Notes under the pieces: generated by a model | What the model saw: only the letters and a program-made list of their open reading frames with translations | Databases searched by the model: none | What the model was told of the DNA's origin: nothing | Translations under genes and position numbers: made by a program | Assembly (NCBI GenBank): GCA_964016885.1 | Contig: OZ024760.1 | Location: 22,072,001-22,136,000, forward strand | Length of the DNA stretch: 64,000 bases | Origin: Eledone cirrhosa | Taxonomy: Eukaryota | Reading direction: 5' to 3' | Part shown: piece by piece, positions 2,161 through 2,427 of the stretch | Layout: each line of letters begins with the position of its first letter | Position numbering within the stretch: position 1 is the first letter of the stretch

Positions 2161-2212
2161 GGCTTCTACAGGATTAGAACTGTTTCATTCGGAGGAAATC
2201 ATCAGGAAAGCC
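2161..2212 (-). ncRNA. Type I hammerhead ribozyme motif, family A, tandem copy 1
   Basis: Minus strand GGCUUUC-CUGAUGA-U-UUC(CUCC)GAA-U-GAA-ACAG(UUCUAAUC)CUGU-A-GAAGCC: both core boxes, three stems, GUA cleavage triplet. Confidence 0.7.
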
Positions 2213-2268
2213 CTATCTATCTATCTATCTGTCTATATATTTATATATATATATATATATATATAAAC

Positions 2269-2320
2269 GGCTTCTACAGGATTAGAACTGTTTCATTCGG
2301 AGGAAATCATCAGGAAAGCC
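2269..2320 (-). ncRNA. Type I hammerhead ribozyme motif, family A, tandem copy 2
   Basis: Identical to copy 1, offset by 108 bp, separated by (CTAT)n/(TA)n. Confidence 0.7.
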
Positions 2321-2375
2321 CTATCTATCTATCTGTCTCTCTCTCTCTCTCTCTATATATATATAATATAGAAAC

Positions 2376-2427
2376 GGCTTCTACAGGACTAGAACTGTTT
2401 CATTCGGAGGAAATCATCAGGAAAGCC
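2376..2427 (-). ncRNA. Type I hammerhead ribozyme motif, family A, tandem copy 3
   Basis: Same motif with one change confined to loop III; offset by 107 bp from copy 2. Confidence 0.7.

Follow-up and report, generated by a model that had tools for sequence, protein, structure and literature searches.

Three tandem hammerhead motifs of Eledone cirrhosa as a probable by-product of a Hydra-clade Penelope-like retrotransposon

The hammerhead triplet and its host gene

Three 52-nt hammerhead motifs lie head-to-tail on the minus strand (2427-2376, 2320-2269 and 2212-2161) of the window, as the whole analysed stretch of 64,000 nucleotides of Eledone cirrhosa DNA is called here. The features of the locus, in the direction of the minus strand, are:

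15259..15366, minus strand: likely first coding exon of a cpo/RBPMS-like host gene, ending in ...PEEE before a gt donor; upstream of the triplet and on the same strand
2429..2473, no strand assigned: 5' flank of the array, (TA)n and then a stretch of GATA repeats; it is found again ahead of each copy and is regarded as host sequence that the duplicated unit took along
2376..2428, minus strand: hammerhead copy 1 (52 nt and one extra 5' G), predicted cut after 2382
2321..2375, minus strand: spacer 1, in which a short remnant of the element tail (a few nt) is followed by (TA)n, (GA)n and (GATA)n; the extra G ahead of copy 2 is at 2321
2269..2320, minus strand: hammerhead copy 2, sharing a G-to-A change in loop III with copy 3, predicted cut after 2275
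2213..2268, minus strand: spacer 2, in which (TA)n and (GATA)n follow a few nt of element tail; the extra G ahead of copy 3 is at 2213
2161..2212, minus strand: hammerhead copy 3, predicted cut after 2167
2110..2160, no strand assigned: 3' end, with the element truncated no more than about 10 nt past stem I at the TA-rich short-arm end point of the family, into (TA)23

The C3 positions (2420, 2313 and 2205) define units of 107 and 108 nt, with the predicted cleavage base A17 at 2382, 2275 and 2167 of the minus strand; Tandem Repeats Finder (TRF) reported a period of 108, 3.3 copies and 90 % matches. Copies 2 and 3 are identical in sequence and copy 1 is one base off, in loop III; the sequence of copy 1 is the commonest family variant sampled (exact in 11 of 184 sampled copies). 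The motifs are separated by 55-56 nt, made up of (TA)n, (GA)n and (GATA)n, and the units can be told apart by their spacer make-up, by the one loop base and by a 1-nt indel just past stem I. Whole motifs, not cut sites, form both termini of the array. An extra G precedes stem I in all three copies, none of which has an inverted arm. The G+C content of the tandem units is low, 29-36 %. The motif coordinates and the TRF period bear out what the earlier note had described, a triplet of near-identical 52-nt minus-strand motifs at a spacing of 107-108 with microsatellite between them.

The host gene of the triplet is presumably a cpo/RBPMS-like gene. The pattern ag|VRTLFVSGLP, which we take to be the start of the RRM exon of cpo/RBPMS proteins, had a single genome-wide match (G000:C21:21694562-21694592), on the same contig and strand and about 393 kb further on; this exon has a good acceptor in a phase matching the PEEE exon, and we infer a splice from the one to the other from the sequence. 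The two exons bracket the triplet, which therefore likely lies in sense orientation inside a very long intron, about 13 kb past the intron start. The flanking minus-strand exons thus support the earlier placement of the triplet in an intron on the strand of the cpo-like gene, which is probably correct. RRM exons of the host gene were found neither in the window nor in the next 200 kb, and the 25-aa peptide of exon 2 had no Pfam match.

Ribozyme architecture

The type I core (C3-U4-G5-A6-N7-G8-A9, G12-A13-A14, A15.1-U16.1 and H17) is present in all three window copies. Stem I, 6 bp with a bulged U, joins the 5' and 3' ends as in a three-helix type I hammerhead, stem II has 3 bp on a U·U, stem III has 4 bp with an 8-nt loop, and the cleavage site is GUA. 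The canonical G10.1-C11.1 pair closing stem II is absent and replaced by the U·U. The motifs had been called intact, which holds for the core and the GUA in all three copies, with reservations for stem II with its U·U, for stem I with its bulged U and for stem III with its 4 bp under an 8-nt loop. The G10.1-C11.1 pair was termed highly conserved in hammerheads of Penelope-like elements (PLEs; PMC4209133). Most Hydra magnipapillata hammerheads in the supplement of PMC8557442 carry U on both sides below stem II, and a stem III of ACAG/CUGU together with GUA occurs in three other hammerheads listed there. A U·U below stem II and a GUA site are typical of published Hydra ribozymes. The covariance-model check that the earlier note had proposed came out negative for the triplet in Rfam, with no hammerhead match at the gathering score nor at E<=10.

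The same architecture was found in the dispersed family to which the motifs belong. In a sample of 159 distinct copies, biased by the queries used, 153 have the U·U below stem II and 105 an intact core, while the four loop II bases vary widely. Among eight subfamily variants two of six stem I pairs were changed on both sides and stems II and III were invariant, a covariation score reached by 2 of 500 shuffles; as the eight rows were hand-picked and are related, with five bulged rows left out, the score is supportive and not a probability. Across subfamilies the core and all three stems are invariant or compensated, whereas N7 varies and loop II does so freely. The hammerhead structure of the family looks selected, as judged from these sequence comparisons. 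In one subfamily (L149, L160, L164) a change in loop III lengthens its central palindrome and fits a dimeric fold; in copies 2 and 3 of the window this palindrome is lost.

The parent transposon

Exact matches in the genome number 4,481 for the 31-nt 3' half of the motif (none for its reversed control), 7,643 for a 32-nt piece of the sequence following the motif in longer copies, and 469 for the motif variant of the window itself. Copies of the family stop at a TA-rich point just past stem I or about 80 nt later and continue into (TA)n or (CA)n, often with an inverted partial copy head-to-head. The three copies of the triplet represent the short form of these ends. An upstream extension was present in two of 30 sampled loci; a search with this extension gave 245 candidates, 41 places among which were scored. 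Two of the loci (L094, L097) contain an inverted pseudo-LTR (pLTR), broken reverse transcriptase (RT) and GIY-YIG frames and a 3' pLTR with the motif; a third (L105) has the endonuclease, the 3' region and the motif in direct order. In all three the motif is a variant one base shorter than that of the window.

Sister families have a pLTR-ORF-pLTR layout with open frames of 754-823 aa. Single frames of 758 aa in L161 and L167 encode a putative RT followed by a C-terminal GIY-YIG, the ORF organization of the Hydra clade, and hammerheads in direct or inverted pLTRs and insertions in (TA)n are likewise as in that clade. The frames contain, as read by eye, RWR, DKT, C-x-C-x5-C, CDLC and CMH motifs and no CCHH; section 11 of PMC8557442 gives RWK, DKT, CxCX5C and CxxC/CxH without CCHH for the Hydra clade. 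Pfam detected in the element protein a GIY-YIG below threshold only and no RT, and a PDB search with the protein gave nothing relevant. Three matches at 40-48 % identity came from the protein homologue search, with no Pfam match in the local copy, and RT and GIY-YIG clusters were among the Atlas look-alikes of the protein (0.96-0.97). The motifs and these look-alikes point to the RT assignment of the frame.

The exact bulged-U variant of the window had no attached ORF in nine loci examined (L162, L168-L170, L171-L176 less overlaps). It differs from the ORF-linked variant by one inserted base, shares the upstream sequence of the parent with it, and makes up 64 of 100 among the upstream-bearing copies listed. 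By way of the one-base-shorter variant and the upstream sequence, the window motif is identified from sequence as the pLTR ribozyme of a Hydra-clade PLE. With the core, the three stems and the membership in a dispersed Hydra-clade PLE family, the assignment to type I hammerheads of the kind known from Penelope-like termini was upheld.

Several further observations concern this and related repeats. The many uninterrupted 758-aa frames (L161 1581-3854, L167 1484-3757) suggest a young Hydra-clade family with recent activity. The window holds nine more full or partial family copies, mostly as head-to-head inverted pairs, at 23120-23452, 25705-25803, 30394-30434 and 47495-47587; the inverted pair at 25.7 kb belongs to the subfamily with intact 758-aa elements. 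In the interiors of L094 and L097 other PLE-type and RT fragments are nested between the ORF and the 3' pLTR, apparently in TA-rich sequence. A truncated motif copy was amplified as a passenger inside a larger repeated segment (L031-L038, L059, L060). Two unrelated hammerhead-like motifs with core boxes on the minus strand of the window (55459-55508 and 62523-62575) probably belong to other PLE families. Another TA-associated palindromic repeat family (window 25840-26010 and 62641-62882; L004, L023, L050) has a short stretch in common with the element tail and often adjoins the element.

Tandem arrays in the genome

A genome-wide count of tandem copies, as suggested in the earlier note, found the junction of GATA flank and motif three times in the 3.0-Gb genome, all at the triplet; the unit was thus missing from unlinked loci, where a mobile non-LTR retrozyme is expected. 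Given this locus-specific flank, the triplet most likely arose by duplication in place across (TA)n tracts, inside which the unit boundaries fall. Direct tandems were searched with exact 11-mers at 40-90 nt between motifs, in subfamilies with the stem I 3' strand of the window; 20 junctions at 16 loci were obtained (that of the triplet and 15 others), and no spacer was common between loci. Two adjacent intact cores were present in five of the 16 loci, as judged by eye. One of the loci (L142, G000:C22:13602950-13603330) has four direct 91-nt hammerhead units, three with an intact core, and an inverted copy. Spacers private to each locus indicate that short arrays arise repeatedly and do not spread. 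In the window, local duplication is common: other local tandems were seen at 14699-15190 (154-nt units with (TA)n spacers), 9070-9288 (102-nt units) and 38544-39368 (a short-period array).

In its layout, tandem units each with a complete type I hammerhead, the triplet resembles a non-LTR retrozyme, a comparison to be read with the reservation that the descriptor of the preprint by Li, Clavereau and Pollet (2026, bioRxiv 10.64898/2026.07.22.740005) may not accept the U·U; in mobility it does not. A distinct minimal retrozyme unit, as proposed before, is not borne out, for the unit occurs at this locus only and the motif belongs to a dispersed Hydra-clade PLE family. Nor is a 107-nt unit unusually minimal, considering the tandem hammerhead repeats of 51-972 bp reported in that preprint and the 91-nt four-unit array elsewhere in the genome.

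Start of the short copies

The 5' ends were determined for 70 of the first 72 tail matches listed, all on contig C1 and some probably segmental duplicates. In 37 of these tail-anchored copies the 5' end was at most 12 nt from C3 (one looks mis-assigned); the others began more than 30 nt upstream (18), 13-30 nt upstream (2), inside the motif (6), at the cut site (2) or downstream (5). Stubs starting at the cleavage site had been considered and were rejected with 2 of 70 5' ends there. Among 98 distinct copies whose upstream side is free of TA runs and inverted arms, 69 had a TATA-like match, and in 50 of the 98 it was 35-37 nt before C3; in four subfamilies (L279-L298, L161, L160) the TATA box precedes the first base of stem I by 29-30 nt. 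Of the 469 copies of the window variant, 248 have a G immediately ahead of stem I, 97 the C of the parent and 124 an A or T. The upstream sequence of the parent was absent from 30 of 30 G copies checked; in 18 of these 30, an inverted arm next to the copy could have served as the template of the extra G. In other retroelements the cap is copied as an extra G.

Copies that start at stem I, 30 nt past a TATA box and often with an extra G, suggest run-off copies of a capped, uncleaved RNA. We favour, with some reserve, a start of the element RNA at stem I and an origin of the stubs as run-off cDNAs of that capped, uncleaved RNA. A published link between TATA box or start site, ribozyme and extra G was not found in the literature searched, and the coincidence of TATA+30, stem I start, 5' ends of the short copies and extra G may be new. 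If confirmed, the ribozyme would sit at the capped 5' end of the element RNA; cleavage there would take off the cap, and uncleaved RNA would be the main source of inserted copies. The function of PLE hammerheads would then become a testable question.

Predicted folding and cleavage

Single motifs had folding z-scores of -0.02 to +0.70, no better than shuffles, with a minimum free energy (MFE) below -5 kcal/mol. At 37 °C a nearest-neighbour model, uncalibrated against known hammerheads, placed the hammerhead fold 3.9-7.1 kcal/mol higher than the ensemble. In the trimer the (UA)n spacers pair among themselves, so that two simultaneous active folds cost 11.5-14.7 kcal/mol relative to the ensemble in the same type of model. 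Core and tertiary contacts are left out of such models. A cross-unit 'double hammerhead' register was rejected as main route, at 11-12 versus 4-7 kcal/mol for the in-unit fold at 37 °C.

Low in vitro activity has been described for metazoan PLE hammerheads, even as dimers (PMC4209133, PMC6765202), and one of nine Xenopus dimers was cleaved in the retrozyme preprint (bioRxiv 10.64898/2026.07.22.740005). PMC11167929 describes an anole PLE whose chief template was uncleaved RNA and for which reads ending at the cut site were lacking. By models and analogy, slow or negligible cleavage is the likeliest outcome for the triplet. Its sequence suggests that it is probably a real hammerhead of a known PLE clade, authentic but weak.

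Origin of the triplet

With a probability of roughly 0.8, we consider the triplet a transposon by-product: the hammerhead-bearing terminus of a Penelope-like retrotransposon of the Hydra clade, situated within a (TA)n tract, where misalignment of the TA repeats likely duplicated it two times. The family membership, the ORF-bearing parents, the locus-specific flank of each unit and the covariation in stem I were observed directly. In the proposed course of events, transcription of the element would initiate on the first base of stem I, about 30 nt past the TATA box of the pLTR. Nicked (TA)n at the TA-rich site just 3' of the ribozyme would prime reverse transcription, which would proceed off the capped 5' end of the RNA and yield a promoterless stub of about 60 nt carrying an extra G. 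The (TA)n tracts on either side would then, by slippage or unequal exchange, have copied the stub with its GATA flank, followed by the loop III change in one copy and a second duplication of that copy, an order that rests on one base. The array would be transcribed only within the host intron, with slow cleavage, if any, after 2382, 2275 and 2167; as a unit it has not spread.

An alternative for the tandem arrangement is template jumping of the PLE reverse transcriptase during a single insertion, with no later DNA duplication. Partial tandems are frequent in PLE insertions (PMC8557442), and some short tandems of the genome join different subfamilies or hold inverted pieces (L127, L136, L146). 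In the triplet, however, the unit boundaries lie inside (TA)n tracts and every unit has the GATA flank that is absent from all other copies, so template jumping would need a read-through transcript of the triplet locus; we regard it as very unlikely. The same private flank bears on an independent minimal non-LTR retrozyme, whose 107-nt unit would be cut out, circularised and re-inserted by the PLE reverse transcriptase. Such an element would agree with the three adjacent complete cores with identical stems, with the combination of tandem repeat, one motif per unit and an MFE below -5 kcal/mol by which the retrozyme preprint operationally recognises these repeats, and with sister families whose intact frames could supply the RT. 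It is very improbable nevertheless, with a unit found nowhere else in the genome, a separate spacer at each of the 16 short tandems, an array that starts and stops with whole motifs and not at cut sites, the high predicted cost of two active folds, and the single cleaved dimer among the nine from Xenopus. Mis-assembly across the microsatellites, expanding one copy into three, can hardly be credited: the region is of low complexity, and four DNA or unlabelled read runs aligned to 1540-2530 gave no coverage of 2118-2530 (skipped as repeat), yet the units differ in spacer, loop base and indel.

A different kind of objection is that the motif is a hammerhead look-alike or dead ribozyme and the array has no catalytic activity, which concerns activity and is compatible with an origin as PLE end-piece. 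The missing Rfam match, the loss of a G10.1-C11.1 pair highly conserved in PLE hammerheads, the hammerhead fold well above the ensemble and the rarity of family copies beginning at the cut site all fit this view. We nonetheless hold it to be unlikely, with more weight than the alternatives above: between subfamilies loop II and N7 change, whereas the core and the three stems are either constant or compensated, the folding models omit the contacts of the core, and the U·U variant is listed for many Hydra hammerheads (PMC8557442 supplement).

More far-reaching would be a retrozyme birth caught in the act. Transcripts would begin exactly at the ribozyme, thousands of promoterless, ribozyme-complete stubs would have been seeded in TA repeats, and these repeats would keep making arrays of 90-130-nt units; at this locus transcription of the host intron would cut the array, release circles of 107 or 108 nt that are half microsatellite, and sever the intron of about 390 kb near its start. 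We regard this as quite unlikely.

Comparison with known systems

The Eledone family and the Hydra-clade PLEs with pLTR hammerheads (Craig et al. 2021, PMC8557442) are alike in the RWK-like, DKT, CxCX5C and CxxC/CxH motifs without CCHH, in the order of RT and C-terminal GIY-YIG, in (TA)n targets, in inverted 5'-truncated copies and in a tail that is confined to one end; their hammerheads share the U·U below stem II and the GUA site. Loop III has 8 nt with a central palindrome here versus 0-3 nt in the Hydra motifs listed in that paper. The hammerhead sequence differs from that of the octopus family Hydra-1_oBim, and strings from the window motif had no matching hammerhead in the supplement of PMC8557442, so the window motif represents another family. 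An earlier octopus report of this family was not found in the literature searched beyond the Craig paper and a squid genome count.

For PAc, a Poseidon PLE of the anole (Frangieh et al. 2024, PMC11167929), the tail is explained by internal priming on AT-rich DNA, as it would be here, and uncleaved RNA as main template fits the scarcity of copies starting at the cut site. PAc is from a different clade and its ORF starts inside the hammerhead, whereas in the Eledone family the RT match begins more than 200 nt downstream. The Penelope elements of Adineta (Arkhipova et al. 2013, PMC3846280) are similar in solo pLTRs, head-to-head inverted junctions and a putative TATA box with initiator in the pLTR; in the portion of that paper available, the start site is not tied to the ribozyme and no extra 5' G is mentioned.

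Animal non-LTR retrozymes (Cervera and de la Pena 2020, PMC7229834; bioRxiv 10.64898/2026.07.22.740005) likewise consist of tandem type I units of low G+C. In contrast to them the triplet unit has no dispersed family, its spacer is host microsatellite and not element sequence, and it is known from sequence, not from circular RNA or cleavage. The triplet is an unremarkable locus: copies of such transposon ends run into thousands, and short tandems of them, this one included, number at least 16. Its probable origin from a PLE pLTR by local amplification is the route put forward in the same preprint, and the triplet provides a clean example of this proposed route from PLE pLTR to tandem hammerhead repeat, in which both the parent and the intermediate can be identified.
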